A DNA stretch of 64,000 nt from the IMG/VR virus record IMGVR_UViG_3300043102_000037, positions 1-64,000 of that record; one strand, given 5' to 3'. The notes below the pieces were generated by a model. That model ran no database searches, was not told the DNA's origin, and saw only the letters and a program-made list of their open reading frames with translations. The position numbers and the translations under genes were made by a program. This document shows, piece after piece, positions 30,634-63,428 of the stretch (the first letter of the stretch is position 1; every line of letters starts with the position of its first letter). Source of the DNA: a virus. Its lineage: Duplodnaviria; Caudoviricetes.

Positions 30634-30852
30634 ATGAAATCGGAAAAAGAAAAAGAAGAACGAATTGATAAGTTAATGTATAGGCTTTATAAGAACGTGG
30701 ATTTAATTCTGGCAGGCGTTGCTACGGAATCAGAATTAAATAGCGATTTTAATAGAATATACGCCGAATTAAAAGAATTAGGCGTAGACATAAAGCATAC
30801 AGAAATTTTACTTCCAGAGGAAGGTTTAAGTGATAATGAAGCCATTATATGA
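30634..30852 (+). CDS. hypothetical protein
   Basis: 72-aa ORF overlapping the groES start. Confidence 0.5.
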   Translation: MKSEKEKEERIDKLMYRLYKNVDLILAGVATESELNSDFNRIYAELKELGVDIKHTEILLPEEGLSDNEAII

Positions 30853-31114
30853 TAATGTTTTGATTAGACTACCAGAAACGCAAACTAAAACTAATAGCGG
30901 TATATATATTCCAGAATCAGCAGCAGGAAAGCCGCAAACTGGTACTGTCGTAGCTGTTGGCGATGGCAGGATACTGAACAACGGAACGCTGATGCCGCTC
31001 GAAGTCAAGGTTGGCGATGAGATTATTTTTCTTAAGTTCGCAGGCTCGGAAATTATAGAGAATAAAGAAAAGTATCTAATGATTTCCGAAAGAGATATTT
31101 TAGCAATTTTATAA
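30830..31114 (+). CDS. groES: co-chaperonin GroES
   Basis: MKPLYDNVL...SGIYIPE..KPQTGTVVAVGDG...VKVGD.I.F.KFAGSEI...YL.ISERDILA. Confidence 0.93.
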   Translation: MIMKPLYDNVLIRLPETQTKTNSGIYIPESAAGKPQTGTVVAVGDGRILNNGTLMPLEVKVGDEIIFLKFAGSEIIENKEKYLMISERDILAIL

Positions 31115-33516: not shown

Positions 33517-36148
33517 TTAGTCTAAGGATACTGGCTTAGTATACGTTATTTGCTTATTGTCTTTAGCGTTATTCAGTGGCAGGAATTTGTTGCATATTAA
33601 GCTATTTTTGCCGTCTTTGTCTTTCATGCCGCGCACCATTACTTTATTGCCTATTTTAAAGATTTTTTCTTTATCAGCAATACTAGCATACGTTGACGCG
33701 AATACAACTCCTTCTATAAAGCAGCCATTCCAATTTAACAAGACAAAAAGCATAGGATTATTATTTTTGTCTATATAGTTCTTAATGCCTTTAAAAGTAA
33801 CTTCTTCTCCGAAGAAACCGCCGCTCTTTAAAGCCTCCCATTTTTCTTCGTAAATAACGTGTATAGGCTTATAAGTAATATAAGTGCTTAATGCTTCATC
33901 TTCCATAGCTATACATACGTCTTTATCGTATTTATTGACATCGAATTTTTCTATTTTCTTTTCTTTTCTTAAATCGTATAATTCATTCAATAATGCGTAT
34001 CTATTGCTGTTAAATGAATCAAATGCGCCTGCCTTTATTAAATTTGTTGCTACTGTTTTATTAAAAGATTTTTTCGGTATTCTGTTAAAGGCATCTTCTA
34101 AAGAAGAATACGGAGCATTTTTCATAATTTCAATAGTAGCGGCTTTAACGCCTGCTACACTGGATAAGCCATATAAAATCTCTCTTGTTTTAGGAGAAGG
34201 TGTAAAGTTATTTTTAGATATGCTTATATTAGGGCATTTTATATTAATGCCGAATCTTTTTGCTACTTTTACATACTTGCCGCGTTTTTCTTTATTTTCT
34301 TCAACGGATAATAATGCTGCGAAAAATTCAACAGGATAATGTACTTTAAGCCATGCTGTAAGCATTGTTATATATGTGTATGACGCACTATGGCTTTTAT
34401 TAAAAGCGTATGCAGCAAAACCGAGCATATAATTCCAATACTTCATAAATTCTTCTTCTGTATAGCCGTTTTTAATAGCACCTTTAATTTCATTTCCGTA
34501 ATGCGGTTTTCCAGTTAATTTATCGTAGTCATACCAAGGAGCATTAGTATCATTTTCCCAACCATCTGGTCCTTCTTTATTTATTTTGCCGTATAAATGG
34601 CAGCGTCTTAGCATTTCCATTTTATCGACTTTCTTTTTAGCTACTATTTTTCGCGTAAGAGAATCAGCCTGTCCATCGTCAAATCCAGAAACTATTTTAG
34701 ATATAAGCATTATTTGTTCTTGGTATATAATAATTCCGTATGTGCTGTTCAATACTTCTTCACAGCCGCGTATAGGATATTCTATTTTTTCATTGCCGTG
34801 CTTTCTTTTTATATACATAGTATGAAAGCCTGCTGACAGAGGACCCGGACGAAGTAATGCTGTTAAGGCTACCAAATCATCAAAACAAGTTGGCTTTAGC
34901 ATACCGAGATTAGGCTTAAACGTCTTTTCCGATTCCATCTGAAATATTCCATCGCTTTCTTTGTCAGTAAGCATTTTAAATATTTCTTCGTCTTTCATAT
35001 CAACGGATTTATAAAGCCATTCAAAATCCTTATCCTCTCCTATTGATTTAAGCGTCATATTTATTACAGATAACGTTTTTAAGCCTAATATATCGAATTT
35101 TACTAAGCCGAGTTCCTCTACTTCAACGCCTGTATATAGCGTTATAATAGTTCCTGTTTTTTTATCTTTTCTTAAAGGCACTACATCAGATATAGGACAT
35201 GGAGTTATAAGCACACCTGATGCGTGTACTCCAAGATGGCGCATACAGCCTTCAAACTTTCTGGCTAATCTAAATACTTCTTTATATTTATTTTCTAACT
35301 CCTCAAATGTTTTATATATTTCTGGGGCTGTTTCTTTTAAATCGTCATAATCCTTAAAAGTAGACTTTTCTAAATCTATCGGAATATCGCTTAACGCTTT
35401 TGTTAAATTATTGCTTTCTACATAGCTTACGCCTAATACTTTAGCAAAATCTTTAATGCCAGACGCTACACCTAAAGCAGACCATGCTCCAATATGCGAT
35501 ACGTTTTCTTTGCCGTATTTTTCTTCAAAGTATTCAATTACTCTATGACGGTTAAAGTAGTCAAAGTCTAAATCAATATCTGGATAACCTGTCCTGTCTT
35601 TGGTTAAAAAGCGTGAAAACATTAAATTATGCTCTATCGGGTTAATGTTACTCGTTACTCCGATTAAAAATAATACGACAGAGCCGCCCGCGCTGCCTCT
35701 GCCCGGACCTACTACTATGTCGTTTTTTTTGCACCATTGGACGTAATCCTGCACTATGAGCATATAATCAGCAAAGCCTTTAGAGTTAATTACTTCTAAT
35801 TCGTAATCTATTCTTTGCTGATACTTTACTATATTTATTTCTGGGTGCTTTTTATAGTATGCGTACAATCCTTGATATGCTTTTATAGTAAGTATGTCTG
35901 ACGCTGATACTCCATTGGACGCTATTTGCGGCAATAATGTTTTTTCACTGCCTATTTTTATGTCGTCAGATATTCTTTCTGCTAATTCGTTCGTTGTATC
36001 TAAGCTATTAAGATAAAACTTTGTATATTCTTTTCTGTCGCAATCCATTTCATTTAATTGCTGATTAAAATAATATATCATTTCAGCTCTATTTCTTAGC
36101 CAAAAATCATTCGAGTATTTCATTCTATCGTTATCGCTTTTAAATTGT
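33517..36148 (-). CDS. dnaE: DnaE polymerase copy 2, 3' exon (catalytic core to OB-like tail)
   Basis: GRGSAGGS, PDIDLD, HASG, KFDILGL, YQEQ, AFNKSHS. The frame stays open upstream of ATG 36123 (GQFKSDNDR) to the element junction. Confidence 0.9.
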
Positions 36149-36149
36149 C

Positions 36150-36327
36150 CTGATATATAAACTTTATAATTATTTATAAACGCTCAAAAAATTATAAGCT
36201 TGTTTCCTTGTTCAACGTGTCCGTTTTGGATTGTATTGCTACAATCTACTTACGTTTGTATGACACTCCAAAGGCGTAAATTCGGCGTTATCAACACCTA
36301 CATATTAGCATAATCTTGATATTGACT
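36150..36327 (-). ncRNA. probable omegaRNA scaffold / IS607 right end
   Basis: Non-coding 3' region of tnpB with stem-forming segments (CCGAATTTACGCCTTTGG; GATTGTAGCAATACAATC) running to the right junction. Confidence 0.65.
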
Positions 36328-37476
36328 CTATGCTAATTGATAGTTTGCTAAATTAATACTAGCGTTCTTATCTCTATCCAAAGTGAAACCACACACATCA
36401 CAGTGATACGTTCTATCCTTGAGTTTTAAATCTTTCTTGATGTTTTCACAACAGGAACACATCTTGCTTGACGGATAGAACCTATCAGCCTGAATGAACC
36501 TAATTCCGTACTTTTCGGACTTGTACTTCATAAAGCTAATGAACTGATAGAATCCCTGTTCTGCTATGGCTTTTGAAAGATGCTTGTTTTTCAACATACC
36601 TGTGACGTTTAAGTCTTCCATAACTATTCTCGATGGCTTGGTTTTCGCAATCAAATTAGTTACTTGGTGGTTATAGTCTAGGCGGATGTTCTTCAACTTT
36701 TCGTGTATAAGCTTGATTATTCGCTCTAGTTTTAAGATGTTTTGAGTCTTAACATACCTATTACCTTGGCGGTTCTTCTCATACTTCCTCGAAACTTGAC
36801 GTTGCAATCTTCTAAGTCTCTTTTTCAACTTTCTAATCTTTTGAGTTTTGTTGATATTTCCAAAAGGACTGTCGAAATTGCTAACAGTCGCAAGTTCCTT
36901 GATGCCTAAGTCAATTCCTACAGATAAGTTCTCATACAGTTCTAAAGGTTGGTTTTCATACTCAATACCTAAAGACAAATACCAGTATCGCCCATTAAAT
37001 TTTATTCTTGGATTGTATACTGATATTTTATCTTTCTTGTAATTGCCTTTAGGCAGCCTATTTTCGTCACTTATCTTGACTACACCAATCTTCTCAAGTT
37101 GTATTTGACTATCCGTAACCTTGAACTTAGTTGGTAAGTGATAGAAAGATATAGTGCTTTTCTTCTTTGACTTATGTCTAGGATACTTAGCAGCTTTCTT
37201 GAAGAACTTACTTCTAGCATTGTCAAAGTCTTTTATAGCTTGTTGTGGTATCTCTGATGAGACTTCTTTAAGCCATGGGTATTTGTTAGAGTTCCTAATC
37301 TTAGTGAAGTGCTTTCGCATAGCACCAATGCTTACAGATTTTCCGTATAGTTTATAATAAGTTTCGGAAAATCTTAACGCCCAGTTGTACGCAAATCGCA
37401 TAACACCTGCTGATTTCCACATTAAAGTCTCTTGCTCTTTCGTTGGATAGAGTTTGACTTTTATGCCTTTAATCAT
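36328..37476 (-). CDS. tnpB: TnpB (IS607-associated) RNA-guided endonuclease
   Basis: GIDLG, VMEDL, DRDKNA RuvC triad intact; CSCC...CDVC zinc finger. Confidence 0.95.
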   Translation of the reverse strand: MIKGIKVKLYPTKEQETLMWKSAGVMRFAYNWALRFSETYYKLYGKSVSIGAMRKHFTKIRNSNKYPWLKEVSSEIPQQAIKDFDNARSKFFKKAAKYPRHKSKKKSTISFYHLPTKFKVTDSQIQLEKIGVVKISDENRLPKGNYKKDKISVYNPRIKFNGRYWYLSLGIEYENQPLELYENLSVGIDLGIKELATVSNFDSPFGNINKTQKIRKLKKRLRRLQRQVSRKYEKNRQGNRYVKTQNILKLERIIKLIHEKLKNIRLDYNHQVTNLIAKTKPSRIVMEDLNVTGMLKNKHLSKAIAEQGFYQFISFMKYKSEKYGIRFIQADRFYPSSKMCSCCENIKKDLKLKDRTYHCDVCGFTLDRDKNASINLANYQLA

Positions 37477-38080
37477 CTTCAGACAACTCCTTAATTATCT
37501 TTTTGGTTTTATTAGCTCTTTTTCCTTGTAATCTACAACTGAATATAGTTATTATTTGGATTAAATCTTCGACAATTTCTTCTTCGTCACTTCTTTCGGT
37601 GCTATCAATTATTTCAATCTCAACACTCTTAGACATACAAATATTTTCTATTAATTCGTATCCAAATCTAACCAATCTATCCTTATATAGAATTATGATT
37701 TTAGAAACTTCCTCATTTAAAACCATACTCATAAGCTTGTTCAAGCCTTTATTTTGATAATTAATTCCGCTACCTATATCCGAGATTATTGAAAACTGAT
37801 AGCCTTTAGCATACATATACATCTTGACGTTTTCAATTTGCCTATCTAAAGCTTCTTTTTGCTTTTGACTAGACACTCTACAGTAGCCTATTGTCTGCTT
37901 AGATTTTACTTTCTCACCATTATAAATTTTAAGTTGTTCATCGGTATAATAGCGATAACCTGTCACCTCATCCACATACGCAGGTTTTAGTTTACCACTT
38001 TTATCCCAATTTCTTAAAGTTTGTTCTGTACGATTTATTAATTTAGCAAATTGTCCTATGGAATATTTTCTAATTTCCAT
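37469..38080 (-). CDS. tnpA: IS607 transposase (MerR-like HTH + serine recombinase)
   Basis: YSIGQFAK...TLRNWD HTH; GYCRVSS..QK; DIGSGIN; YKDRLVRFG. Confidence 0.95.
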   Translation of the reverse strand: MEIRKYSIGQFAKLINRTEQTLRNWDKSGKLKPAYVDEVTGYRYYTDEQLKIYNGEKVKSKQTIGYCRVSSQKQKEALDRQIENVKMYMYAKGYQFSIISDIGSGINYQNKGLNKLMSMVLNEEVSKIIILYKDRLVRFGYELIENICMSKSVEIEIIDSTERSDEEEIVEDLIQIITIFSCRLQGKRANKTKKIIKELSEDD

Positions 38081-38171
38081 GCTTTATCACCTCTTGTACT
38101 AATTACAACATAAACATTGTAATATGTCAAGAGTTATTTTGAGTATTTATAAATAATTATAAAGTTTATAT

Positions 38172-38598
38172 CTTTTACTATAGAACGCAACTTCTATAAC
38201 GCTATTTCGCTCGCGCTAATAGCCACTCTCTTTCGAGACGTGCAAAGACTATTTCTTCACCCTCACCATTACGAGTTAGGGGCAAACCGCTTCCACTACC
38301 ATAAGCTTGTAGTGTACTCCATCTCTGGATAGTCGTTGAAGTTTCTCCGTGCCTTGCGGTTTAGGAGTTTACCTGCATGAACAACCATTGTTATCGGTTA
38401 TTTAGGATTTAACCTTGTAACCATCCTTACGTTGTTTCTACTTTCGTACCATCGTAGCGTGATTTCTCCACTACTGTGGTGTAAGGCTTTAGGTATTACC
38501 TGCAATTCAATTTGTGTGCTACGCTCGTTTCCGAACGTACCCAGCCGAAAACTCTATAATTTTATGGTTTTATTATAGTTAACTATAAAGTTTTCAAT
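38172..38598 (-). ncRNA. group I intron ribozyme core
   Basis: P AAUUGCAGGUAA (38507-38496), Q UUCAUGCAG (38381-38373), R UUCAACGACUA (38340-38330), S AAGAAAUAGUCU (38257-38246). P7 GACUA/UAGUC, P3 CAAAUUG/CGGUUUG, P1 CAGU/GCUG with terminal U.G. Confidence 0.9.
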
Positions 38599-39428
38599 AC
38601 TGTATTTACGCATAATAAAGAATCATGGTCGTCATGGTCGCTTTCTTTTAAATAGTGTACGTCATTAGTAGCTATTGTTTTTATGTCGTGCTTTTTAGAC
38701 ATTTTCATATAAAATAAATTAGTTGCATATTGCCTGTCTAAACATAACGGCTGAATTTCTAAATAGAACCTGTCGCCAAACACTTCTTTAAAAGCGAGAA
38801 TTGCTTTTTCAGCTTCATCTTTTTTATTGTCGGCTATCAAATGTGAAAAATAACTGCCTATACAAGCCGCTGTACATATAATGCCTTCACTATACTTTTT
38901 AATCATTTCTAAATCGCATACAAATCTGCCGTTATATAAGCATTTTAAAGCGGCTTCACTTTGAAGTTTAACGAGATTATTCCAACCAGTTTGATTAATA
39001 GCCAGAAATAAAATGTGATATTGCGTCATGCAATATTCATAAGGTTCTATTTCTTTTTTATATTTCTTGTATATATCTTTAAATGATTTATTATCCGTTA
39101 TCTCTGGCAGATTTAAGTCAAGATTAAGGCTGTCATTACGATAGTCATTATAAGCTATTTTATGGCGTTCTTCCGCCGATAGTGCCATAATATTAGTGTC
39201 TGGAGTATAATACATCTCTACGCCGAGTATAGGCTTAATATCATTTAATTTGCATTGTGTTTGGAAAGCATATGTGCCGCCCAAATGATTGTGGTCTGTT
39301 ATCGCAATAGCTTTCATATTAAATTCTTTCGCCCTGTTTATAAGTTCATCTAAACGGCAAGCACCGTCCAATAAAGAATATATGGTATGTACATGAAGAT
39401 GTACAAAATTCTTTTCTTCTTTTGACAT
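38599..39428 (-). CDS. dnaE: DnaE polymerase copy 2, 5' exon (PHP domain)
   Basis: HLHVH, AITDH, HILFLA, NDVHY...HDSLLCVNT; the track ORF runs only a few codons into the element. Confidence 0.9.
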
Positions 39429-42483: not shown

Positions 42484-43059
42484 CTATTTATTTACTTTCT
42501 TTTTACTTTGTTTCTTTAGCTTTGCGTACTCATTAGAAGTACACCATTTTTTATCTTTAGCTATATATTTATAGCAGACAAGGTTAAGGTTTGGATAGAC
42601 GTATTCAAATAGCTTTTTCTTTATTTTGAATACGTCTGTTTCTATTCCCTTAACGTCTATAACGTCTGTCTTGCCGTCTATGCCATGGACGACAAAATCA
42701 GCGAAATACGATATTTTTCGTATAGTCTGATTATTTTTTTTAAAAGCAGGTTGAAGAACGAACTCTTTTTGCAATTCAAACGACTTAATTTTCTTGGCTT
42801 TCGCACTTTTAAGAAGTAATATGTAGAATCTGCTCTCTATGATAGAGTCAAATAATATGTCGTCAATATATACCTTTTTATTGCCTAATTTACTGGTATG
42901 CTCGTCTTTTGAACTCGGAAGTAAAAAAGATTTAATTAAACCGTTTTTTTGGTATTCTTCTAATTCCAAAGAATAATCTTTTAATGATTTACTGGAGTAT
43001 TTACTTGTCTTTGCTGCTGATGAAGATGCAGCCGTTTTCTTCCTGCTTTTAAATGGCAT
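42484..43059 (-). CDS. DUF1064-like PD-(D/E)XK endonuclease
   Basis: FDS..E..FY, ELQ..F.LQP.F, Y.ADF, DVKG..TDVFKIKKKLF. Confidence 0.8.
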   Translation of the reverse strand: MPFKSRKKTAASSSAAKTSKYSSKSLKDYSLELEEYQKNGLIKSFLLPSSKDEHTSKLGNKKVYIDDILFDSIIESRFYILLLKSAKAKKIKSFELQKEFVLQPAFKKNNQTIRKISYFADFVVHGIDGKTDVIDVKGIETDVFKIKKKLFEYVYPNLNLVCYKYIAKDKKWCTSNEYAKLKKQSKKKVNK

Positions 43060-43073
43060 TTAAATCACCGTTT

Positions 43074-43238
43074 TTACTTATTCGTTTTCGTTTTACAAGC
43101 CGATTTAGCTTTGGTCTTGCAAGCGGATTTAGTCGATTTTGTTTTACAAGCCGACTTAGATTTTGTCTTGCAAGCAGATTTAATATTGCTGCTCATACTT
43201 GTTGGCATCGTTGCTTCTTTAACTTTGTTAATAATCAT
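43074..43238 (-). CDS. 54-aa peptide with four KSACKTK repeats (SCIFF/ranthipeptide-like); not in the ORF track
   Basis: MIINKVKEATMPTSMSSNIKSACKTKSKSACKTKSTKSACKTKAKSACKTKTNK*. RBS AAGGGTGG at 43254-43247. Repeats differ only at synonymous positions; co-oriented and tightly packed between operon genes. Confidence 0.85.
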   Translation of the reverse strand: MIINKVKEATMPTSMSSNIKSACKTKSKSACKTKSTKSACKTKAKSACKTKTNK

Positions 43239-43240
43239 CG

Positions 43241-43981
43241 CTATGACCACCCTTTACAATAATGTTTTGCCCTGCATGAACTGCAAAGCGGAGAACTTCG
43301 AGGATAAATAATGTTTTGTCTAATGCTTTTCACTACATTTTTTAGTATCTTATCTAATCTCTGATAGTCCATAGCGTTTCTTGTAGTGTAAAAATCTTTG
43401 TTATGCTTTACACTGTGCCATCGGCAGCCCAATATTCGTTTGCCGTATTTTTTCTCAAATACAGCGCAGTCAATAGTAACTTTTAAATCCAAGTCTATAT
43501 CAGCCTGTTCTCTTATTTTGCTGCTAAAATCCAATACAAGAAACTCTAAATTATCTTTCTCATTTACCATAATAGTATTCATTACGCCGCTAAGAGATAT
43601 TATATGATAATCGGCAGGATTTTTACTGCCGTTATTTATTTCATAGATATAAGGCATTTGTTCGCTTGCTATGCGAAGTTCTCTATTAGCCGCCCAATTA
43701 TACATGGCATTTAATAGCCCTAATCCTTCTATATTTCTCTTAGAGTTGATAATGTCTGTATTCGCCTTGCTAATCATATCCCATTTGCGTTTAACATCAT
43801 ACATGGGCATTATTTTGTTATTCATTAGCTGCAAGAAGAATCCAGACGCTACTTTACTAAGCAATTTATTAAAACTTTGCGTTTCGCTTACCGTAAAATC
43901 ATTTGCGTATCTAAAATAGTAATATACGGGGCATTTCATATAATCAATAAGCTGCTTTTCAGTTATCTTTGAGGTAATCAT
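43241..43981 (-). CDS. PD-(D/E)XK (RecB/Cas4-like) nuclease-fold protein
   Basis: N-terminal Y..CP and C-terminal PR...C..C..K..C cysteine cluster. Confidence 0.6.
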   Translation of the reverse strand: MITSKITEKQLIDYMKCPVYYYFRYANDFTVSETQSFNKLLSKVASGFFLQLMNNKIMPMYDVKRKWDMISKANTDIINSKRNIEGLGLLNAMYNWAANRELRIASEQMPYIYEINNGSKNPADYHIISLSGVMNTIMVNEKDNLEFLVLDFSSKIREQADIDLDLKVTIDCAVFEKKYGKRILGCRWHSVKHNKDFYTTRNAMDYQRLDKILKNVVKSIRQNIIYPRSSPLCSSCRAKHYCKGWS

Positions 43982-59792: not shown

Positions 59793-60695
59793 CTACCCGT
59801 TTGTTATACGCGAATGGCACCTTCGACACAATACTTGCAGGTTTTCTATGTTATTATGAGCAGGATTGCGGTCTATATGATGTATCTCTAAAAATCGCGA
59901 ATCAAAATTTGCGTTGCATATTTGGCATTTGAACCATACACTCTTTTTAAGCTCGTATTTCATCTTTGGAGTTAAACTATATTTGTATTCCAGAGCGTTA
60001 GCAGCATGATATTTGGGCAAATTCTTTTTGCTAAAATCGTATTTAGAACCCATTCTGTTTTTAGCGAACTTCACATATGATTCAAAATTAAAGTTATTAG
60101 CTATTTTTTCTCTGTTGCTTTTTCTATATTTGTTATCGTCCTTCCACCATTCTTCTTTAGGAAGGCAAAATCGTCTAAATTGATTCCAATTCAAACGATG
60201 CAGACAGCTTTGGCATACTCTTAATTTTTCGTCGCCAGCGAATAGAATATTGTCGAAATTATCCCATTCTTTTTTTATAATCTCAAAAAATCCAGTTGAG
60301 CGTTGCGTCATTACATATCGGCTTTTGAGTCTTCCTTCTTCGTCTGCCTTTTTAAGATTATCACAATAACACAAATGAACTACTGGAGGTTTTCTTTCTT
60401 CTTTACCAGAGCTATTTAATTTTACTATATGTTCTTTTATATAAACAAATGTCGGTCTTTGCATAAAGACAAATAATTCATTAGTGCCAAACTTCATAAC
60501 GTCAGGCATTTCACTTAAATATCCTTCTATATTGATACCTGTCGTTATGAGCATTTGATACTGCTGCGCAGATTCACTATCAAAGAAAATATCCTGCGCT
60601 GCTTCGCTAAGTTCTTTTTTTGTTATATTCATTTTTTGAATTATTTTATTAAAGCCTTGCATATAATCAGTTATATTTTTGTCTTTCGCGCTCAT
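59793..60695 (-). CDS. zorE: Zorya type II HNH nuclease ZorE
   Basis: VHLCYC..L.....GR..RY..T..S.G.F, L.VC..CL..LNW, C..C...LEIHHIDRN..HN..ENL..LC..CH. Confidence 0.8.
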   Translation of the reverse strand: MSAKDKNITDYMQGFNKIIQKMNITKKELSEAAQDIFFDSESAQQYQMLITTGINIEGYLSEMPDVMKFGTNELFVFMQRPTFVYIKEHIVKLNSSGKEERKPPVVHLCYCDNLKKADEEGRLKSRYVMTQRSTGFFEIIKKEWDNFDNILFAGDEKLRVCQSCLHRLNWNQFRRFCLPKEEWWKDDNKYRKSNREKIANNFNFESYVKFAKNRMGSKYDFSKKNLPKYHAANALEYKYSLTPKMKYELKKSVWFKCQICNANFDSRFLEIHHIDRNPAHNNIENLQVLCRRCHSRITNG

Positions 60696-61342
60696 TTGAA
60701 GAAGTCCTCCAATTCTTTCATAACTGTTATCTCTGGAACAAATTCAACTCGCCTTGATTCGTTGTGATTGCCAGTAGCTTTACTGTATGAATAACCGTTA
60801 GCAGATACTTTTTCAATTAGCCATCGCTTTTCTTCTACACTGCTCGATATAGAGAAAATATAGCTTAATACATTTCTTGCTCTATCCTGCGATAATTTCA
60901 TATTGTAAAAATAGGCGTAATCTTCGCTTGTATTAGAACCCCACTCTTTAGAAGCGTATCCGTCAATATGAATACTTACAACCCTGTCTTTGTATTTGTC
61001 GCTGCTTATTAGTGTCATGTATCTTGGGAAAAAGTTATTCAATATGTCCTGAAATTGCGGAGTTGGATTTGATTCATTCTTTTCAAAAAATGTTACTGGC
61101 GGCTTGAAAAATACGACAGACGCATTGTCTTGACTTATCTCTGCTCCCCACCTAGACAATTCATCATCGCTGAACTCGCGCCTTAAATCAGCTATTAAAT
61201 CTTTTTGCGTATTTTGATAGCCTTTGATAATCATTTCCCCTCTAGCTAAGAAAGCAATACTTATAAACAGGAAAATAATCATTAAACCAGTCATAAGGTC
61301 GGAGATTGATTCCCATATATTATCTTGTTTTTTATGCAGCAT
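60692..61342 (-). CDS. zorB: Zorya MotB/OmpA-like protein ZorB
   Basis: W.SISDLM.GLM..FLF TM helix with conserved Asp; OmpA-like IDGYAS...NMKLSQDRA..V...RRVE. Confidence 0.88.
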   Translation of the reverse strand: MLHKKQDNIWESISDLMTGLMIIFLFISIAFLARGEMIIKGYQNTQKDLIADLRREFSDDELSRWGAEISQDNASVVFFKPPVTFFEKNESNPTPQFQDILNNFFPRYMTLISSDKYKDRVVSIHIDGYASKEWGSNTSEDYAYFYNMKLSQDRARNVLSYIFSISSSVEEKRWLIEKVSANGYSYSKATGNHNESRRVEFVPEITVMKELEDFFK

Positions 61343-61346
61343 AATA

Positions 61347-63428
61347 TTATTTACCTGCCTTTTTCTGATTTAATAAATCGTCTACTTCGTTAATCTTAGA
61401 AACTAACGCCTCATAATTCTCAATCATTTTGGTTGTTATGGATAGCATAGCAGCACCGAGTTTTTCTATTTGGTCTGTCGATGCTTTATTCAATGCTTCT
61501 AATTGAGGTTTAAGAAATTCATTAATAGCGTCTACTGAAAGATTAATATTTGTCCCAATATGTTCTCTAATTTCATCGCTTATAACTTTGGAATTATTTT
61601 CGATTGTATCTTTTATATCGCCAGACGCTTGACTGATAATTTCGGCAGCATTTTTAGTAACTTCATTTAAATTTTCAAGATCGTTTTTAATATCTTGAGA
61701 TACAGCAAGAGATTGTTGTCTGCATTCAGCTACCTTTGCTTTCGTTATTTTTAGTTCTTTTTCTATATCATCGTCGTATGTTTCAATAGTTTTTTCTAAA
61801 TCACCAAACGAATCCATTAATTTTTTAGTAGATATGTTTAAATTGCTCATTGGGATAGTCACTATTCCAACTATACTGCTCATAAGTTTGTCAATTCTTC
61901 CTTTAAAATCGTCAGTTGTTTGATATAATAAATCACCAAATTTTTTATTTGTTTCTGTAATTTTTTCGTTATATTGTTCTTGTAGTGATTCGGCATATCC
62001 TGTAAAATTACGGCTCATCTTTCCTGCTTCATCTATAATTGACTTATTTATCTTTCCTTTAGCTTCAATTAAATCCTCGCTTAATGTTTCAATGGAATTT
62101 TTATAACCTTCCAATGTTTTAACGTATGAAGTAATTTCTGATGAAGCCTGCATTATTTTGACCATATCTGCCGAAATATTTTCGTGCGTTTTTACACTTT
62201 TTCCAATAACATCGTTTAATGATTTTACAATATTAGGCATATCATTTGCGAAATTATAAAATGCTGAATTAACAGTTCTTAGCTCTTGTGTTGATATTTC
62301 AACAGTATCTTTATAATCTTTTTGCCATTCTAGCATTTTTCCAACAGCTATATTTAGTTCCTTAAAATTATCGCCAAATTGTTCGGTAAGTTTTGCATTA
62401 AAGTCTTTTATTGTTTCACTTAACGCTTTAATAAATTGCTCGCTGTTGTTCTTAGCCATATCCTCTAAGAACTTATCAAATGATTCTACCATATTATTTA
62501 TACATTCATTGTTTTTTTCAAGAGTATTTTTATTTTCATCATTTATATTTAACAGCTTATCGTTAAAATCTTTATTCTGCTTATTAGCTGCATCTGAGTT
62601 TTCTACTATTTTTTCCTGCAAATCAGCCATGTTTTTTATACTGTCGTTAAATTGGCTAAGTTTTTCAGATTGCTTTTCAATCATTTGCTCAATGTTACGA
62701 TTAAGCCTTTGAAGTTTTTCGCTTTGCTCTTTTGAGTTGGCATTTATTGCGTCCATCAGATTTGTTATTTGTTTACTCTGATTTTGAGATGCTTTTACGA
62801 AATTAGCTATCATAGTGCTTTGTGTTTGTATTGCACGATTTAAGGAGGAAATTTCTCCGCTAAAATTTTTCAAAAAAGTATCTGGCGATGCGTTTTGTGC
62901 CTGTTGGACAAAAGTAAGAATAGCTCTTGTAGAATCATTTGTATTTTGGCTCATTGCCGCGAGTGAATTTTTGACTTCGCCAATGCTTATATCTGTACGT
63001 TGTTGAACTTCGTTGCTGTGCTCGATAGCCTTAACCAATGCTTCATTTGTATTTTTGATATTATTTAGCAACACGTTAGTTTCAACCTCAAGATTTTTTT
63101 CATCTTTAAAATCCTTATATTCTGCGCCAGCTTGAAAATTTTTAATTACAATACTGAATAACATACCTATTATGGAAGTAAAAAACGCTGTTTTCATACC
63201 CTCTAGCAGCATAGGTATGCTTTCTTGAATATTCCTTGAATCAAAATAATAAAGTGATATAGTTATGCCAATAAACGTAAATAATACGCCTATTGTAACT
63301 ACGATGCCTGCTGCATTATCAATTCTTCCGTTTTTTGTTAAATTCCTTCGCGAACAGAAAGTGATTATACAACAAATAATAAAGCAAATAAAAACCATAA
63401 TGTTAGAAAAACTAAACACGACACGCAC
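61347..63428 (-). CDS. zorA: Zorya MotA-like protein ZorA with long coiled-coil tail
   Basis: T.GVLFTFIGI..SL..FD...I..SI..LLEGMKTAF.TSI.G, then a >500-aa heptad-rich tail. Confidence 0.88.
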   Translation of the reverse strand: MRVVFSFSNIMVFICFIICCIITFCSRRNLTKNGRIDNAAGIVVTIGVLFTFIGITISLYYFDSRNIQESIPMLLEGMKTAFFTSIIGMLFSIVIKNFQAGAEYKDFKDEKNLEVETNVLLNNIKNTNEALVKAIEHSNEVQQRTDISIGEVKNSLAAMSQNTNDSTRAILTFVQQAQNASPDTFLKNFSGEISSLNRAIQTQSTMIANFVKASQNQSKQITNLMDAINANSKEQSEKLQRLNRNIEQMIEKQSEKLSQFNDSIKNMADLQEKIVENSDAANKQNKDFNDKLLNINDENKNTLEKNNECINNMVESFDKFLEDMAKNNSEQFIKALSETIKDFNAKLTEQFGDNFKELNIAVGKMLEWQKDYKDTVEISTQELRTVNSAFYNFANDMPNIVKSLNDVIGKSVKTHENISADMVKIMQASSEITSYVKTLEGYKNSIETLSEDLIEAKGKINKSIIDEAGKMSRNFTGYAESLQEQYNEKITETNKKFGDLLYQTTDDFKGRIDKLMSSIVGIVTIPMSNLNISTKKLMDSFGDLEKTIETYDDDIEKELKITKAKVAECRQQSLAVSQDIKNDLENLNEVTKNAAEIISQASGDIKDTIENNSKVISDEIREHIGTNINLSVDAINEFLKPQLEALNKASTDQIEKLGAAMLSITTKMIENYEALVSKINEVDDLLNQKKAGK

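Follow-up and report, generated by a model that had tools for sequence, protein, structure and literature searches.

Genetic organization of the locus

The window analysed here is the whole stretch of 64,000 nucleotides that begins an IMG/VR virus record (IMGVR_UViG_3300043102_000037), itself a linear virus fragment of 89.5 kb that is about 38% complete. The phage is a gut-type, 0305phi8-36-like jumbo phage. Its gene series runs from a primase, a DnaB helicase and a RecB-like nuclease through a 54-aa basic peptide to DUF1064, sigma-like, RecJ-like and DnaE proteins. The nuclease is a homologue of the 0305phi8-36 ORF190 RecB, and the only cultured-phage matches of the helicase and the nuclease were Bacillus phage 0305phi8-36, its relatives and Moorella phage MTATph1. 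The features around the peptide gene are as follows.

43241..43981, minus strand: upstream PD-(D/E)XK / RecB-like nuclease gene, used as synteny anchor (Pfam PDDEXK_1, E=0.008, below cut-off)
43246..43254, minus strand: Shine-Dalgarno-like AAGGGTGGT, 7 nt before the ATG and within the final codons of the upstream gene
43074..43238, minus strand: 54-aa basic peptide ORF (ATG at 43238, TAA ending at 43074; gene call in assembly L001)
43182..43238, minus strand: N-terminal 19 residues, with traces only of the family motif and a weak likeness to the Selenomonadaceae SCIFF leader
43161..43181, minus strand: KSACKTK copy 1, residues 20-26
43137..43157, minus strand: KSACKTK copy 2, residues 28-34, whose Cys31 is in register with SCIFF Cys32
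43110..43130, minus strand: KSACKTK copy 3, residues 37-43, preceded by an S-T-K linker common to L112 and L125; codons like copy 1
43086..43106, minus strand: KSACKTK copy 4, residues 45-51; codons like copy 2
42484..43059, minus strand: downstream DUF1064 gene (Pfam DUF1064, E=5e-31)

The DUF1064 protein (42484-43059, minus strand) carries a basic Ser/Ala/Lys-rich N-terminal extension, which is also basic in most relatives, and two basic low-complexity stretches are thus encoded back to back. Elsewhere in the window, the dnaE gene (33517-39428, minus strand) is interrupted by an IS607-type TnpA/TnpB pair that splits the PHP from the catalytic part. A GroES (Cpn10)-like gene lies at 30830-31114 on the plus strand; such genes are common in the phage family (L113, L117, L198, L206, L207 and L216), in several cases a few genes away from the position of the peptide. 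The record (G000) also encodes a 1338-aa protein with a cold-shock-like domain at its start (63806-67822, minus strand), followed by a membrane/OmpA-like/HNH-type cassette (59793-63428).

The nearest match of the endolysin among plasmid records was from Selenomonas ruminantium (45.6%), and in a comparison with 401 genomes most of its best matches were LpxC-positive. A Negativicutes host is therefore likely, the endolysin being the single gene from which the host was deduced. No DNA or spacer match was found between 20 kb of the window and 262 Selenomonadaceae genomes, a result that carries no weight either way. The IS607 TnpB was considered as a host marker and dropped, since it belongs to a mobile element and its best match (71%) was in Ruminococcus.

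The 54-aa ORF and its internal repeats

The ORF starts 2 nt past the stop of the upstream gene and ends 14 nt before the DUF1064 start. The same 54-aa gene is called in a near-identical independent assembly (L001), and a comparable Shine-Dalgarno-like sequence, AGGGTGGT, is found at the sister locus L112. The original prediction, made from the letters of the window, had proposed an ORF of this size with its own ribosome binding site; both hold, on the minus strand, which it had left unstated. A scan for promoters and terminators gave no excess above shuffled sequences. An artefact or an opposite-strand reading was excluded by the minus-strand operon, the Shine-Dalgarno site, the synonymous-only repeat differences described below and the conserved position of the ORF in related phages. 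The ORF is confirmed as a real gene for a small basic protein that was previously unannotated.

The peptide contains 15 Lys (28%) and 4 Cys, with a net charge of +14 and a pI of 10.2. Its 19 N-terminal residues are followed by four copies of KSACKTK joined by the linkers S, ST and A, so that successive Cys are 8, 9 and 8 residues apart; the four copies, the codons quoted for them and the number of Lys agree with the first description. When the copies were compared pairwise, 21 out of 21 differences fell at third codon positions and were synonymous, although the copies had been chosen by amino-acid identity, which introduces some bias toward this outcome. The differences occupy five variable codon columns, and three Ser codons and three Thr codons are in use. 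Since the copies differ only synonymously and at third positions, KSACKTK, including its Ser and Thr, appears to be a translated and constrained motif, in agreement with the selection on the peptide that had been proposed. TGC AAG is common to copies 1 and 3, and TCG GCT TGT AAA to copies 2 and 4; because the copies pair in this way, a two-copy unit was probably duplicated.

A family of small peptides at the same position in related phages

A direct search with the peptide gave no match in 5.8 billion proteins, cultured phages, PHROGs or the ESM Atlas, and relatives were gathered through the neighbouring genes (synteny). At 20 distinct related loci, an ORF of 31-54 aa lies just downstream of the nuclease gene, mostly with a clear Shine-Dalgarno site. 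These phages have the slot, and a peptide family occupies it. ORFs in the slot after the RecB-like gene were recorded for L107, L112, L113, L117-L133, L161, L196, L198, L204, L206 and L207, and were often overlooked by gene callers (L113, L117, L206). No slot peptide was found at L127, and the L114 contig ends too early to cover the slot. No Pfam, NCBIfam or PHROG model names the family. At L204, an RRXRR/HNH (IscB-like) element (1546-2790) separates the slot peptide from DUF1064.

The sole element common across the family is an N-terminal motif, (I/L/V)-x-E-x-x-G-x-x-P, whose Glu and Gly are kept under varied codons. The tails are variable and mostly Lys-rich, with net charges from -7 to +11. 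Four of the 20 members are net-acidic (-3 to -7), and nucleic-acid binding therefore cannot be the function of the whole family. The motif might instead form a short strand that binds a partner, such as a nuclease encoded nearby or a protein of the host, with the tail as a variable extension. The 54-aa peptide would then be a family member in decay, its repeats being of little importance except for their charge or a translational coupling to DUF1064. Such a role would agree with the family-wide motif and the wide range of charge, and coupling with an ORF so tightly wedged between its neighbours. However, the motif is eroded in this peptide while its repeats have undergone only synonymous change; a dispensable tail should show the reverse. 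Several relatives also have other genes inserted beside the slot ORF, which argues against pure coupling. This explanation is considered improbable.

Cysteine is absent from 17 of the 20 slot peptides. The other three carry Cys repeats, with two copies in L112 (EACKK and EACKD) and KKCAP, EACA and EACKT in L125 and L130; all have Glu where SCIFF precursors have an invariant Ser, and Thr is mostly absent. SACKT itself occurs in none of the 20 (0/20). The original prediction had named a failure of homologues to conserve Cys and Thr among the points that would tell against it, and this is largely what was seen, as the few members with Cys have EACK or EACA.

Homology of the 54-aa peptide to the family through its Cys-bearing tail is well supported by sequence comparison. 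Local alignment with L125 and L130 gave scores of 73 and 70 (shuffle means about 41, p<0.001), and STKEACK is common to L112 and L125 (score 76, p<0.001). The alignment with L112 was borderline (p=0.06), and a profile built from 17 slot peptides did not recognise the peptide (-5.8 bits, p=0.6), because its N-terminal motif is eroded to traces (V-K-E or M-I-x-N). In the nuclease tree, L112 is the sister phage (100/99 support), and the two peptides begin with M-I-L-N and M-I-I-N (L112 and the 54-aa peptide, respectively). The same tree places the Cys motif in two separate branches, one with this phage and L112 and the other with L125 and L130, and the starred branches force two changes; this distribution may reflect retention with losses, exchange or convergence.

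The Cys could themselves be the working part of the peptide: spaced by 8-9 residues in a basic chain, they might bind a metal or an Fe-S centre, or cross-link chains through disulfide or thiol chemistry. ACK repeats with Cys do occur in both branches, L125 and L130 share the 8-residue spacing with the 54-aa peptide, and the Cys were kept through TGC/TGT change. Against this, most homologues lack Cys altogether, neither CxxC nor any other known metal-site spacing is found in the sequence, and the cytoplasm of anaerobes disfavours disulfides. A working role for the Cys is thus rather unlikely.

Comparison with SCIFF ranthipeptide precursors

The original prediction had taken SACKT for the modified motif of SCIFF ranthipeptides, and as a description of the motif this is correct. 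SACKT was present in 32/32 SCIFF precursors fetched, and the reported thioether cross-link of CteA joins Cys32 to Thr34 within it (PMC8326336). The leader of CteA attaches to the RRE of the maturase as a beta-strand (PMC8326336; PMC6231123), and the link of SCIFF ranthipeptides to quorum sensing, also claimed at the outset, is found in the literature together with one to sporulation (PMC8102284). In one lineage, the slot peptide could have been remodelled to imitate the SCIFF precursor of the host, although this is doubtful. Its N-terminus would dock on the maturase RRE, and its four SACKT motifs would be cross-linked by, or would titrate, the host radical-SAM enzyme, a quite unlikely mechanism by which the ranthipeptide signal would be jammed or forged.

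SCIFF (TIGR03973) was the only NCBIfam match of the peptide, and no Pfam match was found. Residues 3-36 align to model positions 3-36, but the score was 7.6 bits (E=3.7) against a cut-off of 50 bits, and the suggested HMM check thus gave no support for membership. A SCIFF profile built for this study scored the peptide above shuffled sequences (p=0.002). Like the peptide, SCIFF precursors (CteA, Tte1186a) contain SACKT and are of similar length, and with copy 2 in register Ile4, Val7, Cys24, SACKT and Thr37 coincide. In that register, 8/26 near-invariant positions match, five of the eight being SACKT itself. Lys2, His3, Thr6, Gly19-Gly20 and Cys21/28/36/43 are missing, so that of the leader K-H-I-x-T and the Gly-Gly only Ile4 and Val7 are kept. 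SCIFF precursors have six Cys in a CxxCxxxCxxxCxxxC...C ladder, whereas the peptide has two of the six in register and no ladder; it also differs by its net charge, its four tandem copies and the absence of an adjacent TIGR03974 maturase gene. Alignment with six SCIFF precursors gave scores of 45-53 (p 0.012-0.055), lower than those with L125 and L130.

The N-terminal 18 residues scored 9.0 against Selenomonadaceae leaders, for which true leaders reach 27-78; the Cys-free slot peptide L119 reached 12.6, and 2.8% of 250 phage ORF N-termini attain the score of the peptide. In fixed register, the fit to Selenomonadaceae leaders (p=0.014, uncorrected and one of four possible registers) was better than that to other Bacillota leaders (p=0.056), but with free register p rose to 0.14. 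SACKT is one substitution away from the EACKT of the family, and EACKT occurs in no SCIFF.

The likely hosts do have the SCIFF system. The SCIFF precursor was found in 58/61 genomes of the likely host family, and the maturase, whose presence in hosts the original prediction had proposed to check, in 5/5 of the genomes with the best endolysin matches. However, SCIFF is present in 123/151 genomes of the phylum, and its presence in the host is therefore non-discriminating. As had been noted for the window, no radical-SAM gene was found, and this holds for the 89.5-kb record (about 38% complete). No SCIFF maturase scored above cut-off in five near-complete relatives, among them the two that have Cys peptides, and neither a SCIFF precursor nor a maturase is encoded by the complete relatives with such peptides. 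Modelling of a complex between the peptide and the SCIFF maturase of Selenomonas ruminantium scored 0.00 in a run whose controls were not folded, and this score speaks neither for nor against binding. In a related complete phage (L253 and L261, G464:C1:45687-49229), a cluster of three radical-SAM genes was observed, one of which reached 145 bits with the SCIFF-maturase model, short of the cut-off; the cluster is possibly phage-borne and RiPP-like, and the slot peptide there has no Cys.

Scanning the DNA of IMG/VR for patterns (pairs of SACKT, KSTKEACK, KSACKTKxK and KEACKTK) returned chance matches or only L125 and L130 again; the SACKT-pair scan covered TGT as first codon, with 80 of 105 stretches listed. 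Among the matches listed, these scans gave neither another viral KSACKTK peptide nor any further phage ORF with SACKT repeats of the kind that the original prediction had proposed to look for. A scan of 201 Selenomonadaceae genomes for ACK pairs gave no comparable peptide among the matches.

The peptide is not a SCIFF, and mimicry is no function of the family, because the model score, the leader, the Cys ladder and SACKT in homologues are all lacking. Mimicry is conceivable only as an invention of this phage lineage. For it speak the cross-linked motif itself, with Ser and Thr kept despite synonymous change in 4/4 copies, the alignment to the SCIFF model, the weak fit of the N-terminus to leaders of the likely host group, the presence of SCIFF in the hosts and the loss of the family N-terminal motif; against it stand the missing leader determinants, the Cys in 3/20 homologues, with Glu for the invariant Ser, and the closer L125 and L130. 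That such an invention took place is hardly probable. If it did, this would amount to a novel type of phage-host interference and would provide a probe for the poorly known role of the SCIFF peptide. An ancestral basic peptide would then have become a four-site decoy, encoded by a phage on its own, that imitates a RiPP substrate and hijacks or titrates the radical-SAM maturase of a Negativicutes host, an outcome to which only a small chance is given; the literature searches turned up no comparable case.

A putative nucleic-acid-binding repeat peptide

Taken together, these features point most to a lineage-specific tandem expansion of the ACK motif of the family, predicted to yield a histone-H1-like polycation that binds, compacts or shields phage nucleic acid. 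The probability of this reading is put at roughly 0.47. The peptide would be the version, in this phage, of an undescribed family of small proteins that 0305phi8-36-like jumbo phages of anaerobic Bacillota encode between the RecB-like nuclease and DUF1064, in their DNA replication/recombination operon. In the lineage studied here, the inherited S-T-K-[E]-A-C-K motif would have changed its Glu to Ser, duplication of the two-copy unit would have raised the number of copies to four, and the family N-terminal motif would have eroded. The product would be a disordered polycation of +14 with regularly spaced Lys pairs. It would most likely bind phage DNA or RNA independently of sequence, as histone-H1-like proteins do with their Lys-rich repeats, so that nucleic acid might be compacted or shielded during replication, with the Cys as optional cross-linkers. 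The SACKT shared with SCIFF would be a by-product of a single substitution.

The basic-peptide reading is preferred because ORFs occupy the same slot at 20 loci, mostly with Lys-rich tails, and because the alignment with L125 and L130 is better than that with SCIFF. It also draws on the pI, the two-copy duplication, the synonymous-only copies and the precedent of Hc1 and Hc2. Counting against it are the failure of the slot profile to recognise the peptide, the borderline L112 alignment and the acidic members; moreover, a plain polycation has no obvious need for Ser, Ala, Cys and Thr to be exact in 4/4 copies. A DNA-binding type of peptide is nevertheless more likely than a decoy of the host SCIFF, as judged from the sequence comparisons above. 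The basic DNA- or metal-binding peptide that the original prediction had offered as its alternative thus fits better than the mimicry it had favoured, on evidence drawn from sequence.

What is new here is an unnamed family of small jumbo-phage proteins, together with one member that has an expanded Cys repeat. On the basic-peptide reading, the core replication operon of jumbo phages from gut and rumen would gain an undescribed and widespread small-protein family, and the case would illustrate how expansion of repeats can bring about a short motif shared with a RiPP.

Comparison with known systems

In the closest cultured phage group, the equivalent slot is occupied by ORF191 of Bacillus phage 0305phi8-36, a small ORF of 45 aa between the RecB and RuvC genes. 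Unlike the 54-aa peptide, ORF191 has neither Cys nor repeats, and the likeness seen is one of position.

A further parallel comes from Chlamydia. Hc2 binds DNA via Lys-rich repeats whose copy number is variable and expands by duplication, and Hc1 has a conserved N-terminus and a Lys-rich, DNA-binding tail (PMC2848022). Hc2 is much longer (165-237 aa against 54 aa), the peptide is phage-encoded, and, unlike Hc1 and Hc2, some members of the slot family are acidic. The likeness seen is one of composition and repeats: short Lys-rich repeats that grow by duplication, as in the 54-aa peptide, and a conserved N-terminus followed by a basic tail, as in the family.
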